Source of the DNA: a virus | Taxonomy: Duplodnaviria; Caudoviricetes | Length of the DNA stretch: 64,000 bases | IMG/VR virus record: IMGVR_UViG_2747842453_000003 | Coordinates: 1-64,000 of that record | Direction: 5' to 3' (one strand) | In this document: one piece after another, positions 28,085 to 59,355 of the stretch | Layout: each line of letters begins with the position of its first letter | Position numbering within the stretch: the first letter of the stretch is position 1 | The notes under the pieces: generated by a model | What the model was told of the DNA's origin: nothing | The model's input: only the letters and a program-made list of their open reading frames with translations | The model's database searches: none | Position numbers and translations under genes: made by a program

Positions 28085-28113
28085 TTTATATAGTGATTCG
28101 TTCAGAATGTCAA
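28085..28113 (-). promoter_or_regulatory. Early sigma70 promoter with GANTC motif in the spacer
   Basis: TTGACA-17-TATAAA; TGATTCG (+ strand) at 28094-28100. Confidence 0.8.
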
Positions 28114-28136
28114 CCTTTATTTTACGTAGTTTTGCA

Positions 28137-29963
28137 TCAAGCCGCTATAACCGCTGCAAACTTTTTCTGTGTGCGTAGTTCTGCATCAAGGCGATGATGC
28201 ATAGGCTTGCATACTGTAATCAGTTTATCTGCATCATTCATAGTAGCACTGTCTTCTCGACCTTCAATGTGATGCACATCTAAACTAGCAAAGTATTCGT
28301 CTTCAGTCCATTCTCCATACACTACAGGAATCTTACAAGTAGGCACTGTTTGGCCTAGTATCTCACGCTTGGCACAGTGTTCGCACTCTGGGTGACTATG
28401 CTTGTAGTTTTTGTAGTTTTGCGAGCCAGCTTGTGCGTGTGCTGTCTTAGCAGTAACGCCGTAGACTTTTACACGCTTCTTCTGTTCTGCAATACACTCG
28501 TAGATCAGCCTAGACTTGTAATCTGCCCACTCTTGCGGATTGTAAGTATGACGCTGAAAGAACGCTAGAATGCCATATAGATTGTTTTCTGAAAAAGACA
28601 TATGTACTTCATACTCAAATACTGTACTAATCCATTTGTACATTACTTCGCGAGGCACACCCTGTGCGATGCGGTTTTCTGCATACGCAATAGCATCTTT
28701 CCAGTTCTTAATTCCGTCTACATCTGGCCAACGAATCATTCTTCCAAGCAACTGTTCTACACTATGTGTGACTGCATTATCTTGTACACTATTACGCTCA
28801 TGGAAACTAACCATACTGTTAAGATTGGGAATGTTAACTGCTTCTCCAATTAGCTTGTTAGCAACCATTACATTAGTAGAATTAGATTTATTGTTTACAT
28901 GATTGATCATGTCTTGACTTCTAATGTAGTGCGGAAAGTTACGCAAATAATCGTTGCGATTATATCCAAACACTTTCTTGTCTGCACCTGTATTAATCGA
29001 AGTATTTTCAGCAAGGCTGCGATACAGATTTCTTGCATGCCACTGATTATTTGCCTGCACTGCTCTAGCTGGCTTGGCAACAGGAAGTTTATATTCTTGT
29101 GTAACTTTTTCTAACCAAGCATCTTCATCGGACCACTTGTTGTTTAGTTTATCTAACGCACCATCCATATGTACAAGCGTATATCTAATATACTCAGAAA
29201 TACGCTTGTATATTGGAAATGGGTCTTCATATGGATCAACATGGTGGCGAAATTCTTCCACGAGCATCTCGGGACTAAAACCCGGAAAATATGGCGAATA
29301 AACTGTTACATTCTTAACTGCGGCTTGCTCTGCGCACAACACATCCTTATCAAAGTATTCGCTGATGTGTGCAAACTCGTTGCCGCTAAATGTTGTACGC
29401 AAAGGAGTAGCACTAAGCAAGAACCATGCCACATGTGGAATCGCATACAAACACTGATGCCACTCTGCTGTGTATTCGCTGATTGAGTAACCAAACGCTT
29501 CAAATGTATCTTCTGCATTCGAACACATAAAGCCTTTGTGAGCTTCGTCGCTGAACAAAACTAGTTTGCGCTTTTTAGCCCATTTACTAATTGCAAAATT
29601 CTGCTGACTAAGGAATGTAGGATGGCACAATATAATAACACGTTTGTCTGTAACAGGTGCTACGAAATGTTCTGCGCCAGCAAATCCTGTTTCTATTATA
29701 ATATATGCATCAGGATACCGTACAACCATTTCGTCCTTTACTTCCTCAAGGCTTGCGCCGTTGGGACTAGTAAGGATTACATCGCACCCGTTGTCTAAAC
29801 AATACTGTACACAAAAGTTAGTTACAGTGAAAGTTTTGCCTGCACTTGTGCTTAGTGCTAGTACACTGTACTTCGGATTTCTTTTAGATGTTTGGAGGTT
29901 TTGGTTAATCACATCAACAATAGGATTATAGATATGGTCTGTCTGATATTCTCGTAGTTGCAT
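28137..29963 (-). CDS. SF2 (DEAH) helicase/ResIII-like ATPase fused to a C-terminal HNH-like nuclease domain
   Basis: LREYQ Q-motif, TSAGKT, DEAH, SATP, QLLGRMIR; C-terminus CEHC...C...LDVHHIEG...LITVCKPMH. Confidence 0.7.
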   Translation of the reverse strand: MQLREYQTDHIYNPIVDVINQNLQTSKRNPKYSVLALSTSAGKTFTVTNFCVQYCLDNGCDVILTSPNGASLEEVKDEMVVRYPDAYIIIETGFAGAEHFVAPVTDKRVIILCHPTFLSQQNFAISKWAKKRKLVLFSDEAHKGFMCSNAEDTFEAFGYSISEYTAEWHQCLYAIPHVAWFLLSATPLRTTFSGNEFAHISEYFDKDVLCAEQAAVKNVTVYSPYFPGFSPEMLVEEFRHHVDPYEDPFPIYKRISEYIRYTLVHMDGALDKLNNKWSDEDAWLEKVTQEYKLPVAKPARAVQANNQWHARNLYRSLAENTSINTGADKKVFGYNRNDYLRNFPHYIRSQDMINHVNNKSNSTNVMVANKLIGEAVNIPNLNSMVSFHERNSVQDNAVTHSVEQLLGRMIRWPDVDGIKNWKDAIAYAENRIAQGVPREVMYKWISTVFEYEVHMSFSENNLYGILAFFQRHTYNPQEWADYKSRLIYECIAEQKKRVKVYGVTAKTAHAQAGSQNYKNYKHSHPECEHCAKREILGQTVPTCKIPVVYGEWTEDEYFASLDVHHIEGREDSATMNDADKLITVCKPMHHRLDAELRTQKKFAAVIAA

Positions 29964-30204
29964 TGTATGCTCCTTTGTTTCAATCTATACTTACTTTATG
30001 ATTATTACCGTAAATTTACACGGACGCATCTTTATACCATCAGCCCACCAACTAGTAACTTGTTGTAGTTCGGTCATCAACACTAACACACTCCGCTGTG
30101 CGACAATACTCTGCATCGACATTTTTTTGTATGAGAACAACCTCACTTCATTCATATGGGATCTTGTAACCCATACTAGCAAGTAGTAACTCTTGCGTGG
30201 CTCT

Positions 30205-30292
30205 TGGCAGACAGTGTGGGATTCGAACCCACGGAACCTCTCGGTTCGCCGGATTAGTAATCCGGTGCCTTCGACCACTCGGCCAACTGTCC
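30205..30292 (-). tRNA. tRNA-Ser(ACT)
   Basis: GGACAGT acceptor, G73, CCA, long variable arm; anticodon arm CCGGA-TTACTAA-TCCGG. Confidence 0.85.
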
Positions 30293-30299
30293 ACATTAT

Positions 30300-30376
30300 T
30301 GGTCGGAGTATAAGGATTCGAACCTTAGACCTCTGCGTCCCAAACGCAGCGCACTACCAGACTGTGCTATACTCCG
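30300..30376 (-). tRNA. tRNA-Pro(TGG)
   Basis: CGGAGTA acceptor, CTGCG-TTTGGGA-CGCAG, GTTCGAATC, CCA. Confidence 0.95.
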
Positions 30377-30382
30377 TATTAA

Positions 30383-30457
30383 TGGCATCCCGTAGGGGAA
30401 TTGAACCCCTCTTTCCAGGTTGAAAACCTAGCGTCCTAACCGATAGACGAACGGGAC
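30383..30457 (-). tRNA. tRNA-Glu(TTC)
   Basis: GTCCCGT acceptor, CTAGG-TTTTCAA-CCTGG, CCA. Confidence 0.92.
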
Positions 30458-30548
30458 AAATAATGTCAAGCAGTTTATGGTCGTGCTTAGGACATTCTGG
30501 GCACCATTTGTTCAATTATTTTAAAAGAGGAACAAAACCCTTTAACTA

Positions 30549-30625
30549 TGGCGCGGTTGACGGGACTCGAACCCGCGACCCTCGGCGTGACAGGCCGATA
30601 CTCTAACCAACTGAGCTACAACCGC
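30549..30625 (-). tRNA. tRNA-Asp(GTC)
   Basis: GCGGTTG acceptor, TCGGC-CTGTCAC-GCCGA, CCA. Confidence 0.95.
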
Positions 30626-30631
30626 TTGTTA

Positions 30632-30874
30632 TTATTCTCCAATATCAAATGACAATTGACGTTCTGCATCTGCCTCTTCTTTGCGTTCTGAAATAATCAT
30701 ATCGACAATTTCATTAAATGATTCATAAAATTGTTCATCGTCTTTCCAGAATGAGCGACACGCAGCATATGCATCAGCATCTACGAAATTCCAGTTGATT
30801 GAATAATCTTCATTGAGGTTTTCTGATTTCTCAACTGCATCACGGATTTCGATTTCAAGCATTGAATGGATCAT
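30632..30874 (-). CDS. Hypothetical protein
   Basis: 80-aa ORF downstream of a TTGACA-17-TATAAA promoter (about 30906-30934). Confidence 0.65.
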   Translation of the reverse strand: MIHSMLEIEIRDAVEKSENLNEDYSINWNFVDADAYAACRSFWKDDEQFYESFNEIVDMIISERKEEADAERQLSFDIGE

Positions 30875-31096
30875 TGTGATTCTCTCTTATCGTTTCTATG
30901 CATATTTTATAGCATGGTAGAAATAGATTGTCAAGAGTTATTTTAAATTATTTGTCTATTTCTAAACATGGAATAAGAATTGACTGCTTACAATTATCTG
31001 GATATGCAATTGCTGAAACAATGATCGGCATACCCAGCATAAAGAAAGAAATAATAATAAAAGATAGTAATAGTTTCATAAGTTATAATCCTAATT

Positions 31097-31180
31097 TGGT
31101 GGGCGACCCTGGAATCGAACCAGGCATGAGTCACCTCGGCGGAGTTACAGTCCGCTGCCGCACCTTGCAGCACGCCGCCC
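31097..31180 (-). tRNA. tRNA-Tyr(GTA)
   Basis: GCGGA-CTGTAAC-TCCGC, long variable arm, A73, CCA. Confidence 0.9.
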
Positions 31181-31191
31181 AACATTTTATG

Positions 31192-31395
31192 TTAGTCTAA
31201 AAATTCAATCATTTTCAGAATACGTGTACGATTCTCTTCATCGCTGACAATGTTCTCCATCATTTCTTCAATGGTAGCGTCCTCAGCATCAATATCGTTT
31301 AACCATCCATCAATATTTAATGGATCGTCTTCCAAATTTTCACGTTCATACACTTCGTCTGCTAATAGTCTTTCTAATGCTTCAAAATCTGTCAT
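31192..31395 (-). CDS. Small acidic hypothetical protein
   Basis: 67-aa ORF between tRNAs. Confidence 0.55.
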   Translation of the reverse strand: MTDFEALERLLADEVYERENLEDDPLNIDGWLNDIDAEDATIEEMMENIVSDEENRTRILKMIEFLD

Positions 31396-31432
31396 TTTAA
31401 TTCATTGCCTATTTTTGTTTCATTTTAATATT

Positions 31433-31523
31433 TGGTAGAAGTGGGTGGATTCGAACCACCTCAAAGGCGCTAATCTGGCGCAAAGAGCATATAAGACTCC
31501 TCTGACTACCAAGTCTCACTTCC
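31433..31523 (-). tRNA. Non-canonical tRNA with TAT anticodon (Ile, AUA-reading)
   Basis: GGAAGTG/CACTTCT acceptor plus ACCA, canonical T-arm GGTGG-TTCGAAT-CCACC, tiny D-arm GACT-TGGT-AGTC, loop CTTATAT, long variable arm. Confidence 0.75.
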
Positions 31524-31530
31524 AATTCGT

Positions 31531-31607: not shown

Positions 31608-31620
31608 GTTATTATTAATA

Positions 31621-32906: not shown

Positions 32907-32935
32907 GTTATAGCATATTGATTCTAGATTGTCAA
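32907..32935 (-). promoter_or_regulatory. Early sigma70 promoter (GANTC shifted by 3 nt) upstream of the tRNA array
   Basis: TTGACA-17-TATAAC with GAATC in the spacer. Confidence 0.7.
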
Positions 32936-32938
32936 CCT

Positions 32939-33070
32939 TTAATTTCCAAAATAGTTAATTAAATTCCACCATGTATATTCGGTTCCCTGACCAAAGTCCA
33001 TCCAGCCCAATGCAAATACACCGACCATAGCATAGCAAATAAATTCATCAAGTTTTTCACGCTTACTCAT
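32939..33070 (-). CDS. Small hypothetical membrane peptide (43 aa)
   Basis: MSKREKLDEFICYAMVGVFALGWMDFG...; overlaps the upstream stop. Confidence 0.45.
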   Translation of the reverse strand: MSKREKLDEFICYAMVGVFALGWMDFGQGTEYTWWNLINYFGN

Positions 33071-33230
33071 TTGGCGCATACTCTGCTTCAAAGTCAGATA
33101 CGATATCTTTCTTGGCAATCAACATTTGTTCAAGACTACACATTGCAGCAAACTTTTCGTCACTCGCACCTTCGGTAAATGCAATAATTGCATTTTCTAG
33201 AACTTGTATATCGTTTAGAACATCATTCAT
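33063..33230 (-). CDS. Small hypothetical protein (55 aa)
   Basis: MNDVLNDIQVLENAIIAFTEGASDEKFAA... with GAGG RBS, directly after an early promoter. Confidence 0.6.
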   Translation of the reverse strand: MNDVLNDIQVLENAIIAFTEGASDEKFAAMCSLEQMLIAKKDIVSDFEAEYAPNE

Positions 33231-33258: not shown

Positions 33259-33287
33259 GTTATACAGTGATTCGTTCTAAATGTCAA
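33259..33287 (-). promoter_or_regulatory. Early sigma70 promoter with GANTC motif in the spacer
   Basis: TTGACA-17-TATAAC; TGATTCG at 33268-33274. Confidence 0.8.
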
Positions 33288-37454: not shown

Positions 37455-40298
37455 TCATTTTGATAATAATACAGTATTGCCTCCAATTGCAGTAGTATTA
37501 ATACTCACATGCTTCTCCCAAACATATGATTTTAAATAATCTGGTCCACCTGCTTTGGGCCCAGTACCTGACAATCCAATACCACCAAATGGCTGTGTTT
37601 CTACTATTGCTCCAATTTGATCACGATTGATGTAAATATTACCAACATTAACATTATTAGTAATTTCATCATAAAAAGATGCTATTCTGGAATGAATACT
37701 CATGGTTAAACCAAATTTGGTTTCATTAATATCTGATATAATGCCATCTAGTTCATCAACATCATATTCATATACATGTAACAGAGGTCCGAATATTTCC
37801 TTATCAAAATATTTTTTATAATCTGATACTAGATAAGCACTTGGTGGAATTGTTAAAGCAGGTAATTCAACACCATTTCTTGATCTTGTCGCTATCAGTA
37901 TTTCATTTTCTTCAAGTACTGCAATACGTTTTTGTATACTTGCAAAAGCGGCACCATCAATGACACGTGTAACATCAGTATTCAAATCATCACTGAACCC
38001 CATCTGTACAACTTTAATAGCATTTCCCAACATCTTTAAAATAGTATTAGCATTATCTTTTTGTACAAATAAAAATCTTGTTGCACTACAACGCTGTCCT
38101 GCACTATCAAATGCACCGTGTATTACATCTTTAACTAATTGTTCTGGTAAACACGTACTATCAGCAATCATACAATTAATGCCTCCAGTCTCTGCAATAA
38201 ACGGTATAATAGGTCCGTCACGGTCTGCTAACACACGTTGAATACGCTTTGCAGTTTTATGTGAACCAGTAAATGTTATACCGTTAATTCTTTCATCTGA
38301 TACTGCAAGTTCTGCATCCTTAGGATCAGTGGGACATAATCTAATAGCATAATCTGGTATACCGCATTCAAGCATACAACTAACTGCAGTCTCAGCAACC
38401 TTAATTGTTTGTGGCGCAGATTTTGCTAATACAGTATTACCTGTTAGCAATGCTGCTATAATTGGTCCTACAAAAATAGCAAGTGGAAAATTCCATGGTG
38501 CTATAACCATCCACACACCGTGTGCCTGATATGTAGTTGTATTAATTTCGCCTGTATAACTTAACGTATCGCCTTGATTATATAATTTTTCTGCTTGTTC
38601 AGCATAGTATCTAATAAAATCTATGGCTTCCCGAACTTCGCCAATAGCGTTAGGATATGTTTTATTTGCATGTGTAACTAAATTACTTGCTGCTTGTTCC
38701 ATATGTGTTTCCAAATGATCAGCATATTCAAGAACTACTTTCTTTCGTTCATTAAATGTAGTTTTACTCCATTCTTTGCGACCTTTCTCTAGCACTACAA
38801 TACTATCGGTTACTGATAATTGTTCAGGTACAATAAATTCATAACTTGGTCTTCCCACTAGATTTACAATAGATGCAGGATCAGTTAAATCATATCCACG
38901 ACTATTCTTTCGGTTGGGATATAAATCTTTGTATGTTGGTAATTTTTCTTTGTCTTTTTTTGCTTCTATAAATGGATCCACCAGTTGTTGATTAAAAACA
39001 AAACTAGTGTTTGCTCCATTTTCTAATAATCTACGGACAAGATATGCAAGTAAATCTTTGTATTCACCTACAGGCGCATATACTCTAATACTTGTGTTGT
39101 ATGTATTCTGTAGATGGTCAAATAATCCATCACCCATACCATATAACTTTTGAAACTCAAATTCACCTCCTAGGGTTTCGTGGTAAAAGTATATGGCTGC
39201 CACAGTGAATGGATTGTGCGTGGCATAGGCAGGCTTGATATACTCTGATAACATAATCTTTCTTGCACATGCTAGATAACTTATGTCGGTATATTCCTTT
39301 CGTGAGAATACAGGATAGTGTAAGCCTTCTTGTTGTGCTATCTTTATTTCTGTATCCCAATATGCCCCTTTAACTAAACGGACACATATTGATGTATTGG
39401 ATTCTTCTGCAATATGTTCTAATGTTTCTATTGCCCAGAACGCACGTTTTTGATATGCTTGAACTGCGAACCCAATCGTATTTTTTTTAAATTTATGTGT
39501 TAATAATAATTCTTCCAATACCATTATACTTAGATCTAAACGTGATGCTTCCTCAGCATCAATAAACATTGTGGTATTTTTCTCTTCGCATAGCCTGGCA
39601 ATTGCTGCCAATTTTGGTACTAAATGAAGTAATACATCAGCATGATTTTTCAACTCATATCTTGGGTGAATGGCACTTAGTTTAATACTAATGCTATCTT
39701 CAAACCACGCAGCCGCTTGTATATACTTTTCATAATAATCATTTGCATCTGGCCAATTTGTTGCTGCTTCGCCCAACATATCAACTGAATATGTGTATGA
39801 CTCATTTATTGCTTTTTTTGCCTCTTCAATAGTCTCGCCCATTACAAATATGTTGCCCATCCGTTTAACAGATTCTTTAACAATCTTACGAACAGTGGGC
39901 CATCCCAATCTACTAATTAAATTATTATATGCTGCAAAACTCTGGGCTTGAGTTAATACTTTACCACTTAAAGTTGCATAGAAACTATTTTGTGATAGAA
40001 GGTTCCAATCAGCATTTGTTAGTTTTTCTTTAATTAATTTATCTTGTGTTTTTTTATCCGGTGTTCTTAGTAAACATTCGCATAGTGTCATTAACGCAAT
40101 TCCTTCATTGCCTGATAATTCATATGCAGTCATAAGTTGATGTATCATACTAGATTCATTAAATGCAGAATTAATTACATTCGATGTTTCTAATATTTCG
40201 GTTCGGTCATCTTTATTTAATCTGGCTGCCAATATTAACTTAGGCATGATTTCGTTTTCATCAATGCGATAATACATATTATGTTGATATACTTTCAT
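37455..40298 (-). CDS. putA: Bifunctional proline dehydrogenase / P5C (glutamate semialdehyde) dehydrogenase PutA
   Basis: PRODH motifs DMLGE, SIKLS, IDAEE, VRLVKGAYWDTEIK, ATHN, YLVRRLLENGANTSF; ALDH motifs PWNFP, FTGS, AETGG, SAGQRCSA, EIFGP, QPFGG.GLSGTGPKAGGP. Confidence 0.93.
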   Translation of the reverse strand: MKVYQHNMYYRIDENEIMPKLILAARLNKDDRTEILETSNVINSAFNESSMIHQLMTAYELSGNEGIALMTLCECLLRTPDKKTQDKLIKEKLTNADWNLLSQNSFYATLSGKVLTQAQSFAAYNNLISRLGWPTVRKIVKESVKRMGNIFVMGETIEEAKKAINESYTYSVDMLGEAATNWPDANDYYEKYIQAAAWFEDSISIKLSAIHPRYELKNHADVLLHLVPKLAAIARLCEEKNTTMFIDAEEASRLDLSIMVLEELLLTHKFKKNTIGFAVQAYQKRAFWAIETLEHIAEESNTSICVRLVKGAYWDTEIKIAQQEGLHYPVFSRKEYTDISYLACARKIMLSEYIKPAYATHNPFTVAAIYFYHETLGGEFEFQKLYGMGDGLFDHLQNTYNTSIRVYAPVGEYKDLLAYLVRRLLENGANTSFVFNQQLVDPFIEAKKDKEKLPTYKDLYPNRKNSRGYDLTDPASIVNLVGRPSYEFIVPEQLSVTDSIVVLEKGRKEWSKTTFNERKKVVLEYADHLETHMEQAASNLVTHANKTYPNAIGEVREAIDFIRYYAEQAEKLYNQGDTLSYTGEINTTTYQAHGVWMVIAPWNFPLAIFVGPIIAALLTGNTVLAKSAPQTIKVAETAVSCMLECGIPDYAIRLCPTDPKDAELAVSDERINGITFTGSHKTAKRIQRVLADRDGPIIPFIAETGGINCMIADSTCLPEQLVKDVIHGAFDSAGQRCSATRFLFVQKDNANTILKMLGNAIKVVQMGFSDDLNTDVTRVIDGAAFASIQKRIAVLEENEILIATRSRNGVELPALTIPPSAYLVSDYKKYFDKEIFGPLLHVYEYDVDELDGIISDINETKFGLTMSIHSRIASFYDEITNNVNVGNIYINRDQIGAIVETQPFGGIGLSGTGPKAGGPDYLKSYVWEKHVSINTTAIGGNTVLLSK

Positions 40299-40987: not shown

Positions 40988-41320
40988 CTATAAAACTTTT
41001 TCTTGTAATAATGAATATACACACTCAATTACTTGTGTTGAGAACCCACCAATGTGCCAGTCATATTCGTCCATTGGGGTTGAAGGCCGTTTCCAATCAT
41101 AAATTGTCGCAACAACAACTTCTTCTATAAAACTGCCAGGCGCATCTTGTAATTGAATTACAAATTCCAAGTTCCACTCAACATTGGTCTTGTCACCATG
41201 AGTATAAGTAGGCTCACCAAAAGCAGCAACAATGTCAGCATATGTGGTATTAACATATCCTTGCAGCCCAGTACCATTGACGTTAACACTTTCATCATTT
41301 GTAATATTAATAATTTTCAT
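40988..41320 (-). CDS. Hypothetical phage protein
   Basis: TGLQGYV...FGEP...ATIYDWK...WHIGG; AGGAG RBS. Confidence 0.7.
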   Translation of the reverse strand: MKIINITNDESVNVNGTGLQGYVNTTYADIVAAFGEPTYTHGDKTNVEWNLEFVIQLQDAPGSFIEEVVVATIYDWKRPSTPMDEYDWHIGGFSTQVIECVYSLLQEKVL

Positions 41321-41463
41321 TACACATCTCCTACTGTGAGATTTACTCGTTTTACACCATTACGCTTTCCAATATAAAAGAAGAACTTCTTTGCGCTTTC
41401 ATATGTTTTGAATTCTTTTGTCTTTTTAGGATAGTTGTAGTAGCCATATTCAACAGTAAACAT
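41320..41463 (-). CDS. Small hypothetical protein (47 aa)
   Basis: MFTVEYGYYNYPKK... with GAGGG RBS directly after an early promoter. Confidence 0.55.
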   Translation of the reverse strand: MFTVEYGYYNYPKKTKEFKTYESAKKFFFYIGKRNGVKRVNLTVGDV

Positions 41464-41490: not shown

Positions 41491-41519
41491 TTTATATAGT
41501 GATTCGTTTAAGATGTCAA
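41491..41519 (-). promoter_or_regulatory. Early sigma70 promoter with GANTC motif in the spacer
   Basis: TTGACA-17-TATAAA; TGATTCG at 41500-41506. Confidence 0.8.
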
Positions 41520-42313: not shown

Positions 42314-42652
42314 TTAGCGTAAGTAGTTAGGACCAGTCCACTGAACTGTATAATCATTTGAAAGAATATTGCCACGGGCAGAATTTCGTGCAGGAGCATT
42401 GAAGCCTGCTGCTTTTAGAATATCGCCGCGCTTGAATTTCTTATCGTTGTCAGTGTTGACAATAAAACCCCAAACACCATTATTAATAATTTTAATGTAT
42501 TTGCTACCAGTCTTAACAGTAAGACGATTGTTAAACTCATTAATCATATTCTGAACGTGTGTTTCAGCATCGGCAAAAGACTTACCACGAAGTAACCATT
42601 TGGCATAGTCTGCTTTGATTGTAGCGATAAGAGTGTCAATTTGATTTTGCAT
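42314..42652 (-). CDS. Hypothetical phage protein (early)
   Basis: GSKYIKI...GDILKAAGFNAPARNSARGNI; AAGGA RBS. Confidence 0.75.
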   Translation of the reverse strand: MQNQIDTLIATIKADYAKWLLRGKSFADAETHVQNMINEFNNRLTVKTGSKYIKIINNGVWGFIVNTDNDKKFKRGDILKAAGFNAPARNSARGNILSNDYTVQWTGPNYLR

Positions 42653-42683: not shown

Positions 42684-42712
42684 TTTATATAGTGATTCGT
42701 TTAGAATGTCAA
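42684..42712 (-). promoter_or_regulatory. Early sigma70 promoter with GANTC motif in the spacer
   Basis: TTGACA-17-TATAAA; TGATTCG at 42693-42699. Confidence 0.8.
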
Positions 42713-48260: not shown

Positions 48261-48289
48261 AATATATATTGATTCTATTACAATGTCAA
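48261..48289 (-). promoter_or_regulatory. Early sigma70 promoter with GANTC in the spacer
   Basis: TTGACA-17-TATATT; TGATTCT at 48270-48276, same offset as the TGATTCG copies. Confidence 0.7.
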
Positions 48290-48818: not shown

Positions 48819-51800
48819 TTATGCCTGCTTTCTTGCTGGCGGAGTAAAGCCTGGTGGTGTTTCAAGAAGATCTGGATTATGAATTCCACCACCCGTATAA
48901 ACTTCTATATCGGTCATCCATGAGTTTACGCTTGCAAAATGGACGTTCGCCTTGTTTGTAAGACCGGATATATCACTTGCATCTTCGTTTACAACTACTT
49001 CACCATTTATATAATGAACTATACGCCCATTTGATTGAAGTTCAATTGCAAAATGAAGCCATCCCTGAGTATCCAATCTTGTAGTACCATTAGCACTATG
49101 CGTATAATAGTCAAACTGTCCATTGGAAAGCCATGCAAGCGTATGAGGATAGTTGCTGTCAGAAGTGAGATATTGAGCATAGGAATATAGCGCGCTACTG
49201 CCCGAAGTAATCGTAGTCATATCTTCCCACATTGTGGGTTGAGCGGTTCCAAACTTTATGTAATATTGGTAGGTCATTCCTTCACTAAGATCATCAGTTG
49301 ACCAAATGTGAACTGATTTGCCGGGCGCAGGGTCATTCAATACGTTTGGATTGTTGCGCATGGCATATGAGCCGTCTTCAAGACCCCAACTATTTCCCCA
49401 ACCTGTAGGATGGTGTAATGCAACATAATCTGTAGCATTTGTATCTAATTTAGAGTCACTGACGGCTGCAAATGACTCACTATCTCCACTCAATGACCAC
49501 ATCGGAGTTGGGACTGTATTAACTGATTCTTCTTCAGCAACTTCATTCGAGCCTAAAGATTTAGTTGGTGGTGTGAAATCTGCAGTGTATAACACGGAGC
49601 CACTAGTAATTCTAAAATCTTGTATATATCCACTGAACTTTTCGTAATCGCCCGCTCTTGCACCTATTCCTAAATCTCTTGTGGTTGTCATTGGACTGCC
49701 AGTTTTGGCTATGACATGTCGAAGTACTCCATCAACATAGAATGTGTAATTACTGCCGTCCCATGTATATGCTATATGATACCAGGTATTTGGTAATAAT
49801 GTATCAATCCCACTAGAACCAATGTCTGAACGAGTATCTAAAGTATAACTTGAGCCGCTGTGCGATGCAAGTGCATGTAATTTATCACCTAACAATGAAA
49901 GGTATATTGGTCCATATACGCCTGATGTGCCTTGATTACAAATTGTTCTCCATGTACTACCTGAAAGATCAGTTGCATTTATCCATGTTTCTAGTGTATA
50001 TGATTCCCCATTACTAAAATCTATCAAATTCAATGGGTCTTCAACAAGTAAACGATCATCGGAACCGTCAAAATACATTGAATATGAATTAGCAAATTTT
50101 GATTCTGTATTTGATCCTGTCGCACCGCCTATTAATTGTATTCTATTCCCTGATTGTGATTTATCTATAATAGAAGCATTGGTACCTGTAATATGTAACT
50201 CGGCAGCAGATGAAGATAATGAAGCAGTGAGGGGTGTAAAATCTCCATCATATACATATGATCCAGTGACTAATCTTATGGATGAAACCTGAGATTTGAC
50301 TCCATTAAAAAATGTTCTAGAAGTTGAAGAGCCTGTCAAATCTGCACCATCACTAAAAGTTGAATTTTCGTTATAAGTAGTAAGTGTTTGATTCACACCA
50401 TTTACATAAATTTCAACAGTGCCATTTCTTCGTTGGGCTACAACATGTGTCCATTGTTTTTGTGGTAACCAATAGTTATTAACAAATTTTCCTACAGTGT
50501 AACTACCGTATAGACCATAAGCAAAAGTTAAACCATTATATCCAGCGTAAGTTGATTGAGTTAAACTCCACCCCACACCACTGCCATTGTATTCGGTACT
50601 TATAAAAATTCGAGCAGTATTCGTAAAATCTTCCTCGGGATAAATCCAGAATTCAAATGTAAAATCATCAGTGCCTAAATTAAGAGCATCCGATACTACC
50701 AAATTATCACCACTGCCATCAAAATATACAGACCCGCCGTGGTCTGTTGAAACATATTCTGTATAGTCATATGGTGCAAATGGCAATGTGGAAACGATGC
50801 CATTTACTGTAATTGAGTGATCATTCGTTGATCCATCTGAAATGTATGGAAGATGACAAGTAAGTAGAGAGGTGTTTGTTACAGCAGTCAGGCGTTCAGT
50901 TGGTGGAGTAAAGTCATCGGTATAAATTGCAGAACCTTTTACAATTCTAAAATCTGAAATATATCCATTATACCCAGTAGTCGGACCATTTACACCCTGG
51001 CCTATTAATACAGACTTGGTACTGCCCAAATCGCCAATACTGGTTCTTGAAGCTGCAAGGGTTCCATTAATAAATATTCTCCATACTCCGCTCTCTCTAG
51101 TAAGGGCAATGTGTGTCCATTCTCTAGTTATAGTAACTCCAGAACTAACCACCACATTGTGAGGCCCATCATAGAACTGAATTACACCGGATGTATCCAA
51201 GTATATGCCAGTTCCCTCTGCCGCAACGGCATCCCGAATGTCTATAATAGCGCCACCAGATAATGAACTTAATGTACCACCCCAATAAGTCCATAATTCT
51301 ATTGTAAAATCACCAGTACCAAAGCCAAATGCAGGGTCGCTTGCAATACTTAAATTTTCAGTCGGATCAAAATATGTACTATACCCGCCGCTTCTATAAG
51401 GACTAAATGTACCAGAAACAGCATCACCATTTGTTGTCACTGTGTGGTTATTAGTAGATGAATCTATTATACTATTATCAGATGCTCCTGTTGCTGTTAC
51501 AAGTAATACTGTATTACTTGAATTTAAAGAAGGAAGATCTGGTGCTGCAGCAGCAACAGAACCCATTCCACTATGTATTTCACAGTAATAGTATAGCGTA
51601 GGTGCACCAACTTCTACTGTAATTTCTGTGTATGCGTCTGCTTGCCCAGGCACCCCATTATAAGTAACACCGGTTGTATATTCACTTCCGCTATCATGTG
51701 CACCGTTTGCAGTTGTGCTAAACTTTAATGGATGTCCGGTATTAGTACTGTCACTTTGATCAAATCTATAGGTTTCACCTTCAGTTAATGTAACTGTTGG

Positions 51801-52115
51801 ACTAGCGCCTGTCAAATCAGTAATATAATATTTGTTACCAGTACTATATGCGTTTGTTCCACTAGCAACTGTGACTACATAGGTTGTTCCGCTAAATGCT
51901 GTTCCTTCACCAACCAAATTTCCATCAACATCAGTTAGATCGGTTAAATCAACTGGCACATCACTTAATTTTGCCATTGGAATACCACCTGCAGTAGTAC
52001 CATCATGTAATATTATTGTATTGTTTGTTGTATCAAATGTTACTTCTGCCATTTCGCCTGTAAAGGCCTCATGTTCAGTATCAGTTCCTTGACGTAGTTT
52101 TACCGATCTTGCCAT
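48819..52115 (-). CDS. Fibre/receptor-binding protein: Mtd-N-like anchor, cupredoxin-like domain, LamG repeats
   Basis: KLRQGT..EHEAFTG..AEVTFDT....LHDG.TAGG anchor; GHPL...YYCEIHSGMG; three to four LamG modules. Confidence 0.8.
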   Translation of the reverse strand: MARSVKLRQGTDTEHEAFTGEMAEVTFDTTNNTIILHDGTTAGGIPMAKLSDVPVDLTDLTDVDGNLVGEGTAFSGTTYVVTVASGTNAYSTGNKYYITDLTGASPTVTLTEGETYRFDQSDSTNTGHPLKFSTTANGAHDSGSEYTTGVTYNGVPGQADAYTEITVEVGAPTLYYYCEIHSGMGSVAAAAPDLPSLNSSNTVLLVTATGASDNSIIDSSTNNHTVTTNGDAVSGTFSPYRSGGYSTYFDPTENLSIASDPAFGFGTGDFTIELWTYWGGTLSSLSGGAIIDIRDAVAAEGTGIYLDTSGVIQFYDGPHNVVVSSGVTITREWTHIALTRESGVWRIFINGTLAASRTSIGDLGSTKSVLIGQGVNGPTTGYNGYISDFRIVKGSAIYTDDFTPPTERLTAVTNTSLLTCHLPYISDGSTNDHSITVNGIVSTLPFAPYDYTEYVSTDHGGSVYFDGSGDNLVVSDALNLGTDDFTFEFWIYPEEDFTNTARIFISTEYNGSGVGWSLTQSTYAGYNGLTFAYGLYGSYTVGKFVNNYWLPQKQWTHVVAQRRNGTVEIYVNGVNQTLTTYNENSTFSDGADLTGSSTSRTFFNGVKSQVSSIRLVTGSYVYDGDFTPLTASLSSSAAELHITGTNASIIDKSQSGNRIQLIGGATGSNTESKFANSYSMYFDGSDDRLLVEDPLNLIDFSNGESYTLETWINATDLSGSTWRTICNQGTSGVYGPIYLSLLGDKLHALASHSGSSYTLDTRSDIGSSGIDTLLPNTWYHIAYTWDGSNYTFYVDGVLRHVIAKTGSPMTTTRDLGIGARAGDYEKFSGYIQDFRITSGSVLYTADFTPPTKSLGSNEVAEEESVNTVPTPMWSLSGDSESFAAVSDSKLDTNATDYVALHHPTGWGNSWGLEDGSYAMRNNPNVLNDPAPGKSVHIWSTDDLSEGMTYQYYIKFGTAQPTMWEDMTTITSGSSALYSYAQYLTSDSNYPHTLAWLSNGQFDYYTHSANGTTRLDTQGWLHFAIELQSNGRIVHYINGEVVVNEDASDISGLTNKANVHFASVNSWMTDIEVYTGGGIHNPDLLETPPGFTPPARKQA
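51916..52103. repeat. 188-bp direct repeat, copy 1 (identical to 54107-54294)
   Basis: Base-by-base comparison found no mismatch; offset 2191 bp. Confidence 0.9.
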
Positions 52116-52221: not shown

Positions 52222-54306
52222 TTAGGTACCTATGTCATATGATATAATTTCACTAGTTCCTGATGAATACACGATTAGTGTTCTACCATCAGTTGATATT
52301 GTTATTTTACGTAAAGGATCATCAATTCCCGGAGCCATGAAATTCGTTAAAACAGGTGCGGGATTGAAGTCGATACCGCCTCCACCGGGATTTGCATCCC
52401 ACGGCGATAAATCCCACGGACCTGGATTGGTTTTTCTTTTAAAATTCGTTCCAGACCAATTTCTAAACTCATACATTCCATCTGCAGACATACCATTAGC
52501 AGTGTTAGTGCCTTCATTTCGCTCCCAACCAGTATAATATGCAGTTGACATTTCCCATGGTGTTGCTAATTTATATTTCCTCATATGCCGAACACTGCCT
52601 CCCTTTAGAAACATTATTTTACCATCATATGATATATTAAAATTGCATTCATCACCTCCAAATATATCTGAATATAAATACTGTCCCTCTGTACGTGAGA
52701 AAGATGAGATATCATATGGAGTTACTAGATTATATTGTACTATTGAATTAGTATCCCTATCAAATGAATAAAATTTGGTTCCATCAGTTGATATTGAAAT
52801 ATCATGATGCTCTATGCCACTCCATGCAGGACCACCGTTGGGCGGTGTTGCATTTAAATCTTGATATCTAACGTGTGACATTGTACTAATATCCCATGCA
52901 GTGGTCAAAGCAAGCTGTCTTACAGTTTTAATATCCCTCGCACTTGAACCAGATGTATAATAGCAATGCATTCCATCCGCCGAAAACGTAAGTCCGTATA
53001 CATCATTTGCACTAAAGACAGTCTTGCCAGGTAAATTCGCTCTTGATGCCCAAACACTGGAAAATTTAGTTTCATCCATATAACTTGCAGGTGCACCCAT
53101 ATCGTCTTCAACCAATAATCCTTGCGAAGTCAAATTATGTGCAAACGTACCCGAAACATCATATTGGAATATTGTTTGACCGCCAATATACAACTTTTTC
53201 CCATCAGGAGAGAAGTTTATACTGGAAATACCAGCGCCATTTCTTTCGCCAGTGTTTTGATCTAGATGTGGATCATATGCTGGGTTTCCTGGGGTCAAGG
53301 GCGCTAGATCAATTAATTCAGATGGTGTCTCAGTTGCAGTGCTAAGATCCCAAGCAGATGTCATTGTCCATTTTGCAATTATTGGGCCACTCGGTGCACT
53401 TAGTGCAGACACATATATATGTAATCCATCATTCGTTACGAAAATTTCCCAGTAATGTGGGCCACCTGTGACTCTGAGATAATCATACTCAGCATCAAGT
53501 TGCGCGGAGTCCTTCGTTGCTACACTGTTTCCAGTTGGAGACATTGTAGTTACGTCTCCTGGAGTTGACATAGAATATTCTCTAATCTGGTGGTTGTATC
53601 TACCTATTAAAAACATTTTCGTTTCATCTTGTGATACCGCCATAGATGTCCAGCGAAAATCTTTATTGGCTGTATCAGCTATAGTCCATGTATTAAATGT
53701 ACCTGTAGCGGTTAATGATGCAGTTGTGATATCATACGGAGTTGATAATTCATGTGTTTCTACAGTTTCAACTGTTATGAGATATAATCTTGTACCATCA
53801 CTGTTAATATGCAAATCAATCATTTTAGTAGGAGTTGCTCCACCCCATTGGGTACTAGTTGCTACAAGCTGTGTAGTTGAAATATCCCATGCGGTACCAA
53901 CATCAAATTGATCCACTCTTGCTTCTGGAAACTGGTGATTCATTCCAAAACCTTCGTGGGTTAAAGTATATAATTTAGTTCCATCATTTGACCAACAACT
54001 ATGTTTCGAGTATGGATAACTCAAATCTCGGAGACTTTTGAATTCATGTACGATATTACTAGGAACAATTGGTACCCATTCAAATGGCGCAGCAGATTGG
54101 CCAAGTAAATTTCCATCAACATCAGTTAGATCGGTTAAATCAACTGGCACATCACTTAATTTTGCCATTGGAATACCACCTGCAGTAGTACCATCATGTA
54201 ATATTATTGTATTGTTTGTTGTATCAAATGTTACTTCTGCCATTTCGCCTGTAAAGGCCTCATGTTCAGTATCAGTTCCTTGACGTAGTTTTACTGACTT
54301 TGCCAT
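52222..54306 (-). CDS. Fibre/receptor-binding protein: Mtd-N-like anchor plus beta-propeller repeats
   Basis: Same N-terminus as the 1098-aa gene; repeated S.DGTK.Y...Y.L.T(A/P)(W/Y)DIST blades. Confidence 0.8.
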   Translation of the reverse strand: MAKSVKLRQGTDTEHEAFTGEMAEVTFDTTNNTIILHDGTTAGGIPMAKLSDVPVDLTDLTDVDGNLLGQSAAPFEWVPIVPSNIVHEFKSLRDLSYPYSKHSCWSNDGTKLYTLTHEGFGMNHQFPEARVDQFDVGTAWDISTTQLVATSTQWGGATPTKMIDLHINSDGTRLYLITVETVETHELSTPYDITTASLTATGTFNTWTIADTANKDFRWTSMAVSQDETKMFLIGRYNHQIREYSMSTPGDVTTMSPTGNSVATKDSAQLDAEYDYLRVTGGPHYWEIFVTNDGLHIYVSALSAPSGPIIAKWTMTSAWDLSTATETPSELIDLAPLTPGNPAYDPHLDQNTGERNGAGISSINFSPDGKKLYIGGQTIFQYDVSGTFAHNLTSQGLLVEDDMGAPASYMDETKFSSVWASRANLPGKTVFSANDVYGLTFSADGMHCYYTSGSSARDIKTVRQLALTTAWDISTMSHVRYQDLNATPPNGGPAWSGIEHHDISISTDGTKFYSFDRDTNSIVQYNLVTPYDISSFSRTEGQYLYSDIFGGDECNFNISYDGKIMFLKGGSVRHMRKYKLATPWEMSTAYYTGWERNEGTNTANGMSADGMYEFRNWSGTNFKRKTNPGPWDLSPWDANPGGGGIDFNPAPVLTNFMAPGIDDPLRKITISTDGRTLIVYSSGTSEIISYDIGT
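54107..54294. repeat. 188-bp direct repeat, copy 2
   Basis: Identical to 51916-52103. Confidence 0.9.
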
Positions 54307-54623: not shown

Positions 54624-55703
54624 TTACCATCCAATACGTTCCCAAGGAACATCTTTGTTGCCAAAATGTCCATAAGTACAGTTCTCACTATAATTATTAA
54701 AGTTAAACAAATCGAACCTATCAATGATTCCTTTGGGAGTCATATCAATACTACTCTCAATAAACTTTTGAATTGAGCGATTATGTCCGTTTGAATCTAT
54801 ATAGATACTTGTGGGTTGTTTAACACCAATAGCATATGATAATTGTATTTGGCACCAATCAGCCATTTCATCTGCTACAACATTTTTAGCAAGCCAACGA
54901 GCCATATAGGCTGCAGAGCGGTCGACTTTAGTAGGATCCTTGCCACTAAAAGCACCGCCACCATGAGGAGCGAAACCGCCATAAGTGTCCACGATAATCT
55001 TTCTTCCTGTGACACCAGCATCACCGTCAGGACCACCGATAACAAAATTACCTGTAGGATTAAGATGCCATATAGTGTTGTCATCTACTAAATCTCCTAA
55101 TACACTCATTGTCGCAACTTTACTTATATTTCTTGCTTGCTCAATTTGACCTTCGTCATGCTGTGTACTTATCACAACTTGGTCAATACGCTTAACTTTG
55201 CCACCTTCATATTCGACACTTACTTGTGACTTTGCATCCGGTCCCAATATGTTCTGGCGTTGTAGTTTAAGTGTTTTAAGTATTTCATGACTGTAGTAAA
55301 TAGGTGCAGGCAAATATGCATCATTATTGTTACATGCATAACCAAACATAATACCCTGATCTCCTGCGCCGAAGTTATCAGTTCCCAATGCAATGTCTGC
55401 ACTTTGTGCATGAATTTCATTATAAATTTTTAATTTGTCCCAATGAAATCCATCCTGTTCATATCCAATTTCACGAACTTTATTTCTAACAATTTCTTTA
55501 ACTTGATCTTCAGTTACATTAAAGTTTTTTACTTCGCCTGCTAATGTTACCATGTTGGTAGTTACAAGTGTTTCAATGGCAACACGGGTTGTTTCATCGC
55601 CTGCTCTTAATCCTGCATCAACTAATGCATCTGATATTTGGTCTGCTACTTTATCAGGATGACCATCACTCACACTTTCACTCGTAAAAATATAGTTGTT
55701 CAT
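54624..55703 (-). CDS. metK: S-adenosylmethionine synthetase
   Basis: FTSESVSDGHPDK, GAGDQG, PDAKSQV, GGPDGDAGVTGRKI, GGGAFSGKDPTKVDRS. Confidence 0.96.
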   Translation of the reverse strand: MNNYIFTSESVSDGHPDKVADQISDALVDAGLRAGDETTRVAIETLVTTNMVTLAGEVKNFNVTEDQVKEIVRNKVREIGYEQDGFHWDKLKIYNEIHAQSADIALGTDNFGAGDQGIMFGYACNNNDAYLPAPIYYSHEILKTLKLQRQNILGPDAKSQVSVEYEGGKVKRIDQVVISTQHDEGQIEQARNISKVATMSVLGDLVDDNTIWHLNPTGNFVIGGPDGDAGVTGRKIIVDTYGGFAPHGGGAFSGKDPTKVDRSAAYMARWLAKNVVADEMADWCQIQLSYAIGVKQPTSIYIDSNGHNRSIQKFIESSIDMTPKGIIDRFDLFNFNNYSENCTYGHFGNKDVPWERIGW

Positions 55704-55720
55704 TTAGTTTCTCTTTTCTT

Positions 55721-55846
55721 TTATTTTATTTTATGAATATACATATATATTTTTACATAATATGCAAATGTTTTTGGATATGTTTCTGGATCGGGTAGTA
55801 GACCTTCGAAATATTCTATGAAATCTTTTATTTGTTCATCTGTCAT
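55721..55846 (-). CDS. Small hypothetical protein (41 aa)
   Basis: MTDEQIKDFIEYFEGLLPDPETYPKTFAYYVKIY...; fills the gap and overlaps the upstream stop. Confidence 0.5.
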   Translation of the reverse strand: MTDEQIKDFIEYFEGLLPDPETYPKTFAYYVKIYMYIHKIK

Positions 55847-56252
55847 TTTTTGCATTACATACAATTTTTCTTAATTCACTCGAACTAAATCTATGGTCTC
55901 GTTCATTAAAATATATTTCAATATCTCTTTTTTTGCAAATATCTCTACCAGTGAAATCTTTATCACGATATTCTACCCCTAGAATGCGAATATCAATATG
56001 CATTCCACTCAAAATGTCTTCCAAATCTTGTTCAGTAGCATATGGAATAATTTCATCCACATATTTACATGCCCGTAATTGTAGATATCTTTCTACTATA
56101 GTTTGTACCGGTTTATTTTTTGTGTCGCGGTCTATTGTTGGATCTATTTGTAGTCCCACAATTAAATGGTCACAATGTGATTTTGCCTCTTCTAACATAA
56201 GAGTATGACCTGCGTGTAGCAAGTCAAATGTGGATGCGGTGAAACCTATCAT
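55836..56252 (-). CDS. Cytidylyltransferase (TagD/glycerol-3-phosphate cytidylyltransferase-like)
   Basis: TFDLLHAGH (HxGH), RDHRFSSSELR. Confidence 0.85.
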   Translation of the reverse strand: MIGFTASTFDLLHAGHTLMLEEAKSHCDHLIVGLQIDPTIDRDTKNKPVQTIVERYLQLRACKYVDEIIPYATEQDLEDILSGMHIDIRILGVEYRDKDFTGRDICKKRDIEIYFNERDHRFSSSELRKIVCNAKNDR

Positions 56253-56255
56253 TAA

Positions 56256-56480
56256 TTATAACCTCATTAAAAAATCTGCTGCATCAATTTCATTTCTGAA
56301 ATTAATAGTAGCAGTACTAATATATTTGTCTATATGACAAGAAAAGTCTCTCGATTCATACCGAGAGACTAATTCGTTTCTTAGAATCATATCACTTGTG
56401 CCATCGTAAATAACAACTACTGTATACGGTAGTTTTACATTTTTAATAGTTAGTGATTTTACCAGTTTTATTCTAGGCAT
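56256..56480 (-). CDS. Hypothetical protein
   Basis: 74-aa ORF. Confidence 0.5.
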   Translation of the reverse strand: MPRIKLVKSLTIKNVKLPYTVVVIYDGTSDMILRNELVSRYESRDFSCHIDKYISTATINFRNEIDAADFLMRL

Positions 56481-56503
56481 ATTGTTTCTAATCTAAGTTT
56501 ATC

Positions 56504-57619
56504 TTAATTGCTGTTAGCATATACTGTATTAAATTGATTATTAACTTTAACAAATGTAGTGCACTTTGTCAACTGTTTTATTTTTTCAGCACCGGCATAG
56601 GTGCACGTTGAACGAATACCGCCTAGAATGTTCTGAATTGTAGATAATACTTCTCCACGGAATGGTACTAGAACTTCACGTCCTTCACTGCTACGATAAT
56701 CTTTAAGTCCACCAAAATGCTTTGTATTTGCTGCATCACTACTCATACCATAAAATTGTACAAACTTTTTTTCTTTGTATACAGTTTCATAAAAATCATC
56801 ATCTGTTCTTGTTACTTCTGATGTTTCATACATTTTGGTGATAACATTACCACCACCTTCAATGTGTCCAGCAAGCATACCACCAAGCATTACAAAGTCA
56901 GCGCCAGCGGCAAAGGCTTTGGCTACATCGCCAGGACAAGTGCAGCCACCATCCGCAATGATATGGCCGCCAAGACCATGAGCAGCATCAGCGCACTCAA
57001 TAACAGCGGAAAGCTGAGGGTAACCAACACCAGTTTGGATCCGTGTTGTACAAACACTTCCAGGGCCGATGCCCACTTTAACAATATCTGCGCCATTTAG
57101 TATCAACTCCTGTGTTTGATCTGCGGTAACAACATTACCGGCAATGATTACTAATTGAGGAAATTCTGTGCGCACTTTGTAAATGTGTTCAACGAAATGT
57201 TCACTATATCCATTTGCAATATCCATACATACGTATTTTAATCCATCACCAACGTCATGGATCACTTCAACTAATTTTTTAAAATCATCATCGCTTGTGC
57301 CAATACTCATAGCAACATTTTCTGTACGCTCTTCTCTATTGCTATTAAAATGATCAAAATATTCTATAAGTTGTTCTGCCGAGTATGTTTTTACAAGACA
57401 TGTAAAAATATTCTGACTGGCTAAAGTATCTGCCATTTCAAATGTACCAACCCCATCCATATTGGCTGCCATAATAGGTAACCCACTATACTCAATGGTG
57501 CTATTTCTAAATGTAAACTGTCTATTCAAGTCTACATCTTTACGAGATCCTAATGTACTGCGTTTAGGACGAATTAGGACATCACTATAATCTAGTAATA
57601 CTTCATTCTCAATGCGCAT
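56504..57619 (-). CDS. guaC: GMP reductase
   Basis: [57 protein letters not shown]. Confidence 0.93.
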
Positions 57620-58224
57620 TAAACAATTGCCTCTACGTCTTGGACTTGACCATGTTCATCACACTCAACAACAGTAACATTACAATGAATTTCAAACTGA
57701 TTATCAAGGAATTCCCAACCTAGTTCTTCAACACCTTCTTCATATTCTTCATTGTATGCTTCTTCGATTTCTTCCATCATCTCGTCAACGTCTGATAGTA
57801 CTGGTCCATTTGTTTTGATATTCCAATCTTCCCAGCAACCATCCCAGCAGTCTAACATTTCTGCATTTGGATGGTCTTCTGTTAAATCAATCCATTCATC
57901 ATTGGTTGATGGAAGTAGAACGTCTGCCATAGAAAAGTTTTCTTGTAAAATAACTTTATCATCTACACAAATGGTGCAACCATGTGCATCAGCAAATTCG
58001 AATACACTATCATATCCTTCTTCTTCGATATATTCATCGATTTCTTCTTGTGTATCTGGAACGGAAATCATAAACGATCCCCATCGCCATCCTAACTCTT
58101 TATGAAGAAACGCAAACTTACCTTTATCTTCATCATTATTAGTTAATTCTTCAAGAGGTCTACGGAAGTATGTAAACTCTACTACTGATTTTTTATATGT
58201 TGGTTCAATTCGAAAATATTTCAT
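57619..58224 (-). CDS. Acidic hypothetical phage protein
   Basis: 201-aa ORF coupled to guaC. Confidence 0.65.
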
Positions 58225-58303
58225 TATACACCTATTTTATTATAAAAGCCTTCCCAGGCGAAGTCTAACCGGTTAGGATCTCCGCCTGGGGTCATGAGAT
58301 TTA

Positions 58304-58579
58304 TTATTGAGAGTTTGATCCCATGATTTCTTTAAACTCAGTGATGATTTCACTATCTACAAGTTCAGAACGATATAGCGCATATCGTTTTGTATTACCG
58401 TTATATACGCCGATTTCGGTTACATCACCTCGATCATTTGTAGACATCATTCCGTAAAGTTTATTACGGCCTTTCAAATTTTTAACTAACCGCGTTGCTT
58501 CTTCCATAGTGGGAGACATTCTACGATTGTAACGTTTACTCTTGGAACTATTTCCTTGAGTGGTAGGTTGATTTGTCAT
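58304..58579 (-). CDS. Hypothetical protein
   Basis: GAGGA RBS; TTGACT-type promoter upstream at about 58626-58654. Confidence 0.6.
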   Translation of the reverse strand: MTNQPTTQGNSSKSKRYNRRMSPTMEEATRLVKNLKGRNKLYGMMSTNDRGDVTEIGVYNGNTKRYALYRSELVDSEIITEFKEIMGSNSQ

Positions 58580-58662
58580 TTATACATTCCTCTTATGACA
58601 AGTTTCATTTAAGTTTAACAATATAATTATTGCATATATTGTAGGTTAAGTCAAGAACTTTT

Positions 58663-59292
58663 TTAGTTCCAACGATAAAAAATATGTGATCCAATACGTC
58701 CAATCAAATCCATACCACGATCACTTCGCCATGCAGGGTTAACATAGGTAGCGTGATAATGTGTGGCACCTTCTGTGATACCACGAAAACGTTCATCGTG
58801 AATCATTTCCCAAGCAACCATTTGTGCACGAACCCAGTTCTCGGAACCTTCTGGTACTTTATCTGATTTACCATCACAATACCAAGAGAATTGGCATCTA
58901 TTTCGACGCATATTACCATTACTATCTTTTTGCCCATCGTAGACCACTTCACATACCGTATTAGGATAATGAGAATGTAACACACGATTCAAAACCACAT
59001 CAGCAACCGCTGCCATGCCAGCATGATTATCTATGCCACTTTCAAAGAAAATATTCTGTGCCATACAAAACTCTTGCTTATATTTTTCAGGAGAATATAG
59101 AAAAAATTCCTTATCTTTACGTGATTTATAATTGGATAATGCAGCCAATACTACAGTGTTTTCTATTGTTTGTTCAATAGTTTGTGTAATAGGAGTTTCG
59201 TTTTTTACACTTGCCTGTGGGGTTGTTACACTTACAAGTGTTGCTATAATTGCTGCGTTGACTGAGTATGCTATTACATTTTTCAGTTTCAT
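58663..59292 (-). CDS. Cell wall hydrolase, SleB/Hydrolase_2 family, with N-terminal signal-like segment
   Basis: CMAQNIFFES...AVADVVLNRV...YPNTVCEVV...CQFSWYCDG...GATHYHA..V.P.W...IGSHIFY. Confidence 0.9.
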   Translation of the reverse strand: MKLKNVIAYSVNAAIIATLVSVTTPQASVKNETPITQTIEQTIENTVVLAALSNYKSRKDKEFFLYSPEKYKQEFCMAQNIFFESGIDNHAGMAAVADVVLNRVLHSHYPNTVCEVVYDGQKDSNGNMRRNRCQFSWYCDGKSDKVPEGSENWVRAQMVAWEMIHDERFRGITEGATHYHATYVNPAWRSDRGMDLIGRIGSHIFYRWN

Positions 59293-59326
59293 TTTATACC
59301 TGCTCGGTTGTTTCTGCTATATAAGT

Positions 59327-59355
59327 TTTATACAGTGATTCGTTTTAAATGTCAA
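59327..59355 (-). promoter_or_regulatory. Early sigma70 promoter with GANTC motif in the spacer
   Basis: TTGACA-17-TATAAA; TGATTCG at 59336-59342. Confidence 0.8.

Follow-up and report, generated by a model that had tools for sequence, protein, structure and literature searches.

The closest described counterparts of the promoters reported here are the sigma-70 promoters of Caulobacter crescentus that are regulated through GcrA and CcrM, at which GcrA stabilises the binding of RNA polymerase and stimulates open-complex formation. The GcrA consensus is TGATTCG, or more broadly YGAKTCK, and in GcrA-regulated promoters the sites either are 'narrowly centred around -20' or fall at +2 to +30 (Haakonsen, 2015; PMC4647560). 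All seven bases are contacted by the DNA-binding domain of GcrA (Wu, 2018; PMC5887438). The PcsM box, Gm6AATC (m6A, N6-methyladenine), occupies -22 to -18, and upstream boxes fall at -20 ± 1 or -30 ± 2 (Wu, 2023; PMC9976885). In this study, we analysed the first 64 kb (positions 1 to 64,000, hereafter the window) of a 146,030-bp virus record of IMG/VR (IMGVR_UViG_2747842453_000003; G+C 35.6%), together with the remainder of that contig and its relatives. A class of promoters in this DNA carries the heptamer CGAATCA, TGATTCG on the other strand (hereafter the box), at a fixed position in the spacer that separates the -35 from the -10. Full-text literature searches found no description of GANTC or GcrA boxes in phage promoters.

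Results

The preliminary description of this DNA had named five promoters with the box, and all five are present; they lie on the minus strand and read cleanly upon reverse-complementing. The promoter at 28085-28113 (TTGACA-N7-CGAATCA-N3-TATAAA) drives a 195-aa gene (27469-28056), that at 33259-33287, with TATAAC as its -10, a small open reading frame (ORF; 33063-33230), that at 41491-41519 another small ORF (41320-41463), that at 42684-42712 a 112-aa gene (42314-42652), and that at 59327-59355 a cell-wall hydrolase gene (58663-59292). An example of the promoter sequence is GGTTGACATTCTGAACGAATCACTATATAAAG. The 17-nt spacer and the word CGAATCA stand as first described, whereas the distances on either side of the word (N8 before it, N2 or N3 after it) were off by one: the literal N8 pattern has zero matches, and the true form is TTGACA-N7-CGAATCA-N3-TATAA(A/C). 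A sixth site on the minus strand (48261-48289) has, as reported earlier, TGATTCT at the same offset; this is AGAATCA on the promoter strand and falls within YGAKTCK.

CGAATCA occurs 26 times in the contig. Half of these words (13/26), every one of them on the minus strand, stand in exactly the promoter frame, of which 200 dinucleotide shuffles gave 0 copies. Twelve of the 13 promoters end 28-35 nt before a gene start, and the remaining one lies 119 nt upstream. Viewed from the promoters, 13 of the 19 TTGAC(A/T)-N17-TATAA sites of the contig contain the word, for which the chance per promoter spacer is ~6e-5. Overall, GANTC shows no enrichment, being mildly under-represented both in the window (149 observed, 172 expected) and in the contig (340 and 392, respectively). 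It is the position of GANTC that is unusual, not its abundance, and the promoter box is confirmed as a real feature, far above chance.

The box word is conserved across many viral contigs. A scan of IMG/VR with the full pattern returned at least 115 matching stretches, with a G+C of 31 to 45%. To avoid circularity, IMG/VR was rescanned with a pattern in which nothing but the -35, the -10 and a GTATA downstream was fixed, and this gave 94 unique promoters. Spacer positions 8-14 of these read CGAATCA in 56, CGAATCG in 1 and AGAATCA in 1, with no variant at the central GANTC base; 15 of the 94 have GANTC elsewhere in the spacer, where the word is either displaced by a few nt or reversed to GATTCG, and the remainder mostly have TGC-TATAAAG in place of the box. 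Each position of the 7-mer carries ~2 bits of information, against 0.1-0.4 bits at spacer positions 1-6. Identity of the whole spacer, which the preliminary description had held would point to simple promoter duplication, was thus not found; only the 7-mer is fixed while the other spacer positions vary, and this profile rules out whole-spacer duplication. Since the central base of GANTC is invariant, more than methylatability is being selected, which fits a reader of 7 bp. A natural box-less variant lies outside the window, at contig 97209-97237 on the minus strand; it has the -35, -10 and leader of the box class, with ACATACGACTGA replacing the box.

The match to GcrA sites extends to several details. 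All 13 framed copies in the contig read TGATTCG, the top GcrA word, and the sole flank variants seen, CGATTCG and TGATTCT, lie within the extended YGAKTCK context. The limits of the conserved block are exactly the 7 bp that GcrA contacts, with TGATTCG on the template strand and GAATC on the top strand. The centre of the box is 7 nt upstream of the first -10 base, at ~-19 when the hexamer is taken to occupy -12 to -7, and on this inferred numbering the box falls in the published -20 ± 1 class (PMC9976885).

A second promoter class in the window reads TTGACAATCTA..ATGCTATAA and has a TGn extended -10 (30906, 32907 and 61402). ATGCTATAA is present in 3/3 of these promoters, its TG lying upstream of the -10 hexamer at -15/-14. 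Those at 30906-30934 and 61402-61430, both on the minus strand, have a TGC extended -10 and are without GANTC, in agreement with the earlier statement that they lack the motif. In the third (TTGACAATCTA..., 32907-32935, minus strand), the 3-nt shift of GAATC noticed before is real and is directed upstream (centre ~-22), and this promoter also has a TGC extended -10.

Box and TGn are almost mutually exclusive. The TTGACA-N17-TATAA sites that were pooled, 269 in number, comprise 145 with the box alone, 54 with TGn alone, 7 with both and 63 with neither (Fisher p = 2e-16), so that TGn occurs in 7/152 box promoters against 54/117 box-less ones. The two classes also differ from consensus promoters in the -10 itself, which in both usually has no T at -7 (-7T). 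This base is missing from 11/11 box promoters in the studied phage and 11/11 in its relative G001, and in G001 TATAAT is mostly the -10 of those promoters that have neither box nor TGn. Comparable sites of cultured phages have -7T in 9/9 (PA5oct), 8/10 (Melnitz), 3/3 (Mosig) and 6/9 (HTVC008M) cases. By way of reference, promoters without -7T are reported to be characteristically frequent in Alphaproteobacteria, where -7T is present in 30-43% of promoters as against 90-99% elsewhere (Henry, 2020; PMC7703639), and this agrees with an alphaproteobacterial host. Given that a -10 without -7T comes with either TGn or the box, we infer that the box supplies energy for RNA polymerase binding or promoter opening.

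A related word, AGAATCA, recurs within 50 nt past the -10 hexamer, often beside the ribosome-binding site (GAGAATCAC..ATG), in related loci and at 30874-30934 of the window. It has 21 occurrences among 120 box-less promoters and 13 among 154 box promoters and could be a GcrA-type box of the +2 to +30 class or merely ribosome-binding-site context.

The contig is ~40% complete (CheckV). Its large terminase subunit (TerL) is nearest to those of Pseudomonas phage PA5oct (55% identity), Agrobacterium phage Atu_ph07 (53%) and Sinorhizobium phage Phosso (50%), and uncultured relatives with TerL 79-98% identical reach 342 kb at 92% completeness. Given this kinship and the size of these relatives, the contig is part of the genome of a marine jumbo phage, ~340 kb in length. 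The box is present in this jumbo family (G001, G003, G005 and G312; TerL 79-98% identical) and also in G313, a T4-like phage of 145 kb (95% complete) whose TerL is only 34% identical. Because the two lineages share the box and differ in the leaders that follow the -10, their comparison favours a host-imposed element. The Pfam-named proteins common to both lineages are enzymes or structural proteins, none of them DNA-binding, and a few small ones are unnamed. Two proteins of the window, an IMPDH/GMP-reductase-family protein (56504-57619) and a cytidylyltransferase-like protein (55836-56252), are ~60% identical to proteins of G313, a similarity that suggests gene exchange between the two box-bearing lineages.

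Nucleotide comparisons with cultured phages gave only tRNA gene matches (megablast, 20 kb) or chance matches (BLAST, 37-nt promoter). In Melnitz, no regions orthologous to the box promoters of G313 were found. The early promoters of Melnitz (L334, 1-50000) have in common TTGAC(A/T)T, a stretch rich in A that ends in C at ~-25 to -20 and (T)GTATAAT with -7T, and have no GANTC.

The contig encodes a beta-class N6/N4 methylase of 288 aa (contig 116875-117741) in an operon behind a box promoter (118492-118520). Its catalytic domain is clear (PF01555, E = 3.8e-32), its FTDPPYG aligns with the CcrM motif FADPPYN, and CcrM is its best solved relative (E = 2.5e-20), the next-best structures having other or unstated specificities. 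The similarity is nevertheless distant: the alignment stops at CcrM residue 249, and the C-terminal domain of CcrM (366 aa) is absent. The search for a ccrM homologue therefore turned up a distant relative with the catalytic domain, which has neither the C-terminal domain nor the close similarity to known GANTC enzymes that would place it in the CcrM family.

Nearly all genes of the contig are on the minus strand. Host-like genes include those for full-length PutA (947 aa, proline dehydrogenase plus aldehyde dehydrogenase; window 37455-40298, minus strand), a ClpB-like ATPase (window 22144-24387), MetK (S-adenosylmethionine synthetase, three Pfam domains; 54624-55703, minus strand), the IMPDH/GMP-reductase-family protein, PepA and a ClpX-IF3-S21-Hsp20-ClpS block. 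There are also genes for ClpP (contig 121234-121920, minus strand, outside the window; L004:17234-17920), a plastocyanin-like protein, ribonucleotide reductase and a TET-associated glycosyltransferase, as well as nine tRNA genes and an alpha-type two-piece transfer-messenger RNA (tmRNA; Rfam RF01849, 115 bits). ClpP, ClpX, ClpS and the ClpB-like ATPase make up a full Clp set for the phage. The TET-associated glycosyltransferase (PF20691, E = 3e-43; contig 119795-120742, minus strand, outside the window; L004:15795-16742) lies ~2 kb from the methylase and may point to hypermodification of the phage DNA; no TET/JBP family match came from the proteins scanned in this 40% fragment, which were the neighbouring and the large ones. 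Three proteins start with an Mtd_N (major tropism determinant N-terminal) domain (window 48819-52115 and 52222-54306; contig 110170-111387), one of them with three LamG-like domains, and are probably exchangeable receptor-binding proteins. A related jumbo phage (L324, an ENA contig of 331,692 bp) has an S-adenosylmethionine lyase (5528-6061) beside the same ClpX-IF3-S21 block; relatives thus handle S-adenosylmethionine in opposite ways, with the lyase there and MetK in the studied phage.

Discussion

We consider a GcrA-type reader the best single explanation of the box, a preference held tentatively and with slightly less assurance than doubt, because GcrA matches the box in its word, in its 7-bp limits, in its position and in what it appears to do. 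The promoters would be of the host sigma-70 type, probably early or delayed-early; their -35 is perfect, -7T is usually absent from their -10 and their spacer contains a 7-bp element. This element most likely binds a host sigma-70-associated GcrA-type cofactor that reads N6-methylated GANTC, and the cofactor would offset the weak -10 as the TGn extended -10 does in the other promoter class. Under this explanation the host would be an alphaproteobacterium, the sites would be methylated, GcrA would be their reader and the promoters would be early. A suitable class of low-GC marine hosts exists, since GcrA is present in 191 of 301 sampled alphaproteobacterial genomes (two of them, G050 and G250, are unpublished and support no particular claim made here), many of 1.1-1.4 Mb, and since Pelagibacter, a low-GC marine bacterium, is GANTC-methylated in nature and in culture (PMC9516812). 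The alpha-type tmRNA of the phage is likewise compatible with an alphaproteobacterial host. A switch set by S phase or by the timing of methylation, as proposed in the preliminary description, is speculation, and so is the link to MetK: the gene is real, and its connection with the promoters is conjecture only.

A different reader is a serious rival, because the cultured alphaproteobacterial phages examined are without the box. The reader would then be RNA polymerase itself, a protein of a non-alphaproteobacterial host, or a phage-encoded or virion-delivered protein, and the identity with the GcrA site would be coincidence; we regard this as possible, though rather doubtful. A number of observations weigh against GcrA, and several of them speak for this rival. 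The box is missing from all ten cultured phages examined (10/10), namely PA5oct, Melnitz and eight phages with alphaproteobacterial hosts (Atu_ph07, Phosso, HTVC008M, Mosig, Cr30, phiM12, PAU and OC); this box-less set includes SAR11 phages as well as Cr30, a phage of Caulobacter, in which GcrA has its model host. Among cultured phages the T4-like carrier G313 is nearest to Melnitz (TerL 86.5%), which infects OM43, a non-alphaproteobacterium, the second being Pelagibacter phage Mosig (TerL 69%). Melnitz also has an alpha-type tmRNA (PMC9004378), which makes the tmRNA weak host evidence. The exact architecture is at background in the 301 alphaproteobacterial genomes (10 matches, 9 in reversed controls). 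No GcrA homologue (PF07750), for which the preliminary description had suggested looking elsewhere in the genome, was found, either in the contig or among five relatives, of which one is 92% complete. The methylase occurs only in the studied phage and the near-identical G003, being absent from the box-bearing G001 and G313, so that the box does not require it as a partner.

Nor did a search of PutA, IF3 and ClpX for a host signal give any clue. PutA falls in a clade on marine contigs of up to ~470 kb (64-100% identity), with at most 44% identity to named cellular proteins, and is an old auxiliary gene of that contig group. Homologues of IF3 with as little as 58% identity lie in the same ClpX-IF3-S21-Hsp20-ClpS block of ~335-kb phage contigs, so that IF3, like PutA, falls in an old clade of the phage family, and ClpX is 52-57% identical to its best matches among the sampled alphaproteobacterial genomes, no more than general conservation. 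When 185,579 genomes of bacteria and archaea were scanned with the pattern, the 79 matches were mostly Firmicutes TGnTATAAT background and gave no host clue either.

Two further points are in keeping with a different reader, namely that the invariant central base shows selection on sequence rather than on mere methylatability, and that the jumbo and T4-like carriers share several small proteins of unassigned function, which are candidate readers. However, it is unlikely that the box would by chance agree exactly with the single best 7-mer of GcrA and also share its 7-bp limits and its position (by our reckoning ~1e-4 for the word alone). The named proteins shared by the two lineages include none that binds DNA, and the 34% TerL identity between them argues against a lineage-specific phage factor. 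Moreover, promoters that are early must work before phage proteins are made.

It has also to be considered that GANTC methylation acts as a timer without a dedicated reader, by altering the affinity of sigma-70 or RNA polymerase or the geometry of the spacer. The methylating enzyme would be host CcrM or the phage methylase, and transcription would then differ between methylated incoming DNA and unmethylated new DNA. The CcrM-related methylase of the studied phage and G003, the position of its operon behind a box promoter and the presence of MetK are all in line with this idea. We nevertheless think it improbable, given that selection acts on all 7 bp including the central base, beyond what a GANTC methylase needs, that G001 (92% complete) and G313 (95% complete) carry the box without the methylase, that a related jumbo phage encodes the S-adenosylmethionine lyase, and that the methylase lacks the CcrM C-terminal domain and is of unassigned specificity. 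A mobile promoter cassette copied by duplication or recombination, with the 7-mer itself unselected, would account for the 50-60 nt, including the 5' leader (TATAAAGnnnGTATAAGTT), that several promoters share and for the box-less variant that keeps the -35, -10 and leader, but is very improbable and largely refuted by position-specific conservation, as the 7-mer is fixed while the flanks and spacer positions 1-6 vary freely, the same box precedes different leaders in two phage lineages, and the box excludes TGn.

It may be, although we lean somewhat towards doubting it, that a widespread group of uncultured marine phages, of at least two unrelated lineages, tie their first transcription to the GcrA/CcrM module of an alphaproteobacterial host. 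If so, phage expression would be contingent on how the injected genome is marked with m6A and on a host cell-cycle cofactor, and this would be, as far as our literature searches showed, the first viral promoter class built on a host methylation reader. The success of infection in abundant marine alphaproteobacteria would be coupled to the host cell cycle and DNA methylation, a form of host dependence that would be new and that might help to determine host range. The box could then serve as a sequence marker for predicting the hosts of uncultured phages, and GcrA biology would extend beyond Caulobacter and rhizobia to viruses. Even if the reader is not GcrA, the three-way promoter rule (a consensus -10, or TGn, or the box) is a testable design rule.

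Several known systems bear comparison with these promoters. The PeSL (promoter-early stem-loop) cassettes of T4-type phages are repeated early promoters that precede small ORFs of unassigned function. The box promoters resemble them in this arrangement, but conservation in the phage box is position-specific to the 7-mer and is common to unrelated lineages. With extended -10 promoters the likeness is functional: in the phage family the box and TGn are alternatives upstream of a -10 without -7T, which suggests that they do an equivalent job in stabilising RNA polymerase. They differ in that sigma region 3.0 reads TGn directly at -15/-14, whereas the box is 7 bp long and lies at -22 to -16. CarD is not known to have a DNA sequence motif, in contrast to the specific 7-mer conserved in the phage box. 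The CarD-dependent promoters without -7T in Alphaproteobacteria nevertheless present a similar situation, namely a -10 without -7T that needs a helper bound to RNA polymerase (Henry, 2020; PMC7703639). The GcrA promoters of Caulobacter differ from the phage promoters in that the latter lie in phage DNA, have a perfect -35 in an AT-rich context and occur in many near-identical copies per genome. The two are alike in being sigma-70-type promoters with TGATTCG in the spacer between -35 and -10, within the -20 ± 1 class, with GAATC on the top strand as in the PcsM of Caulobacter, and with a weak -10 that would profit from help in opening.

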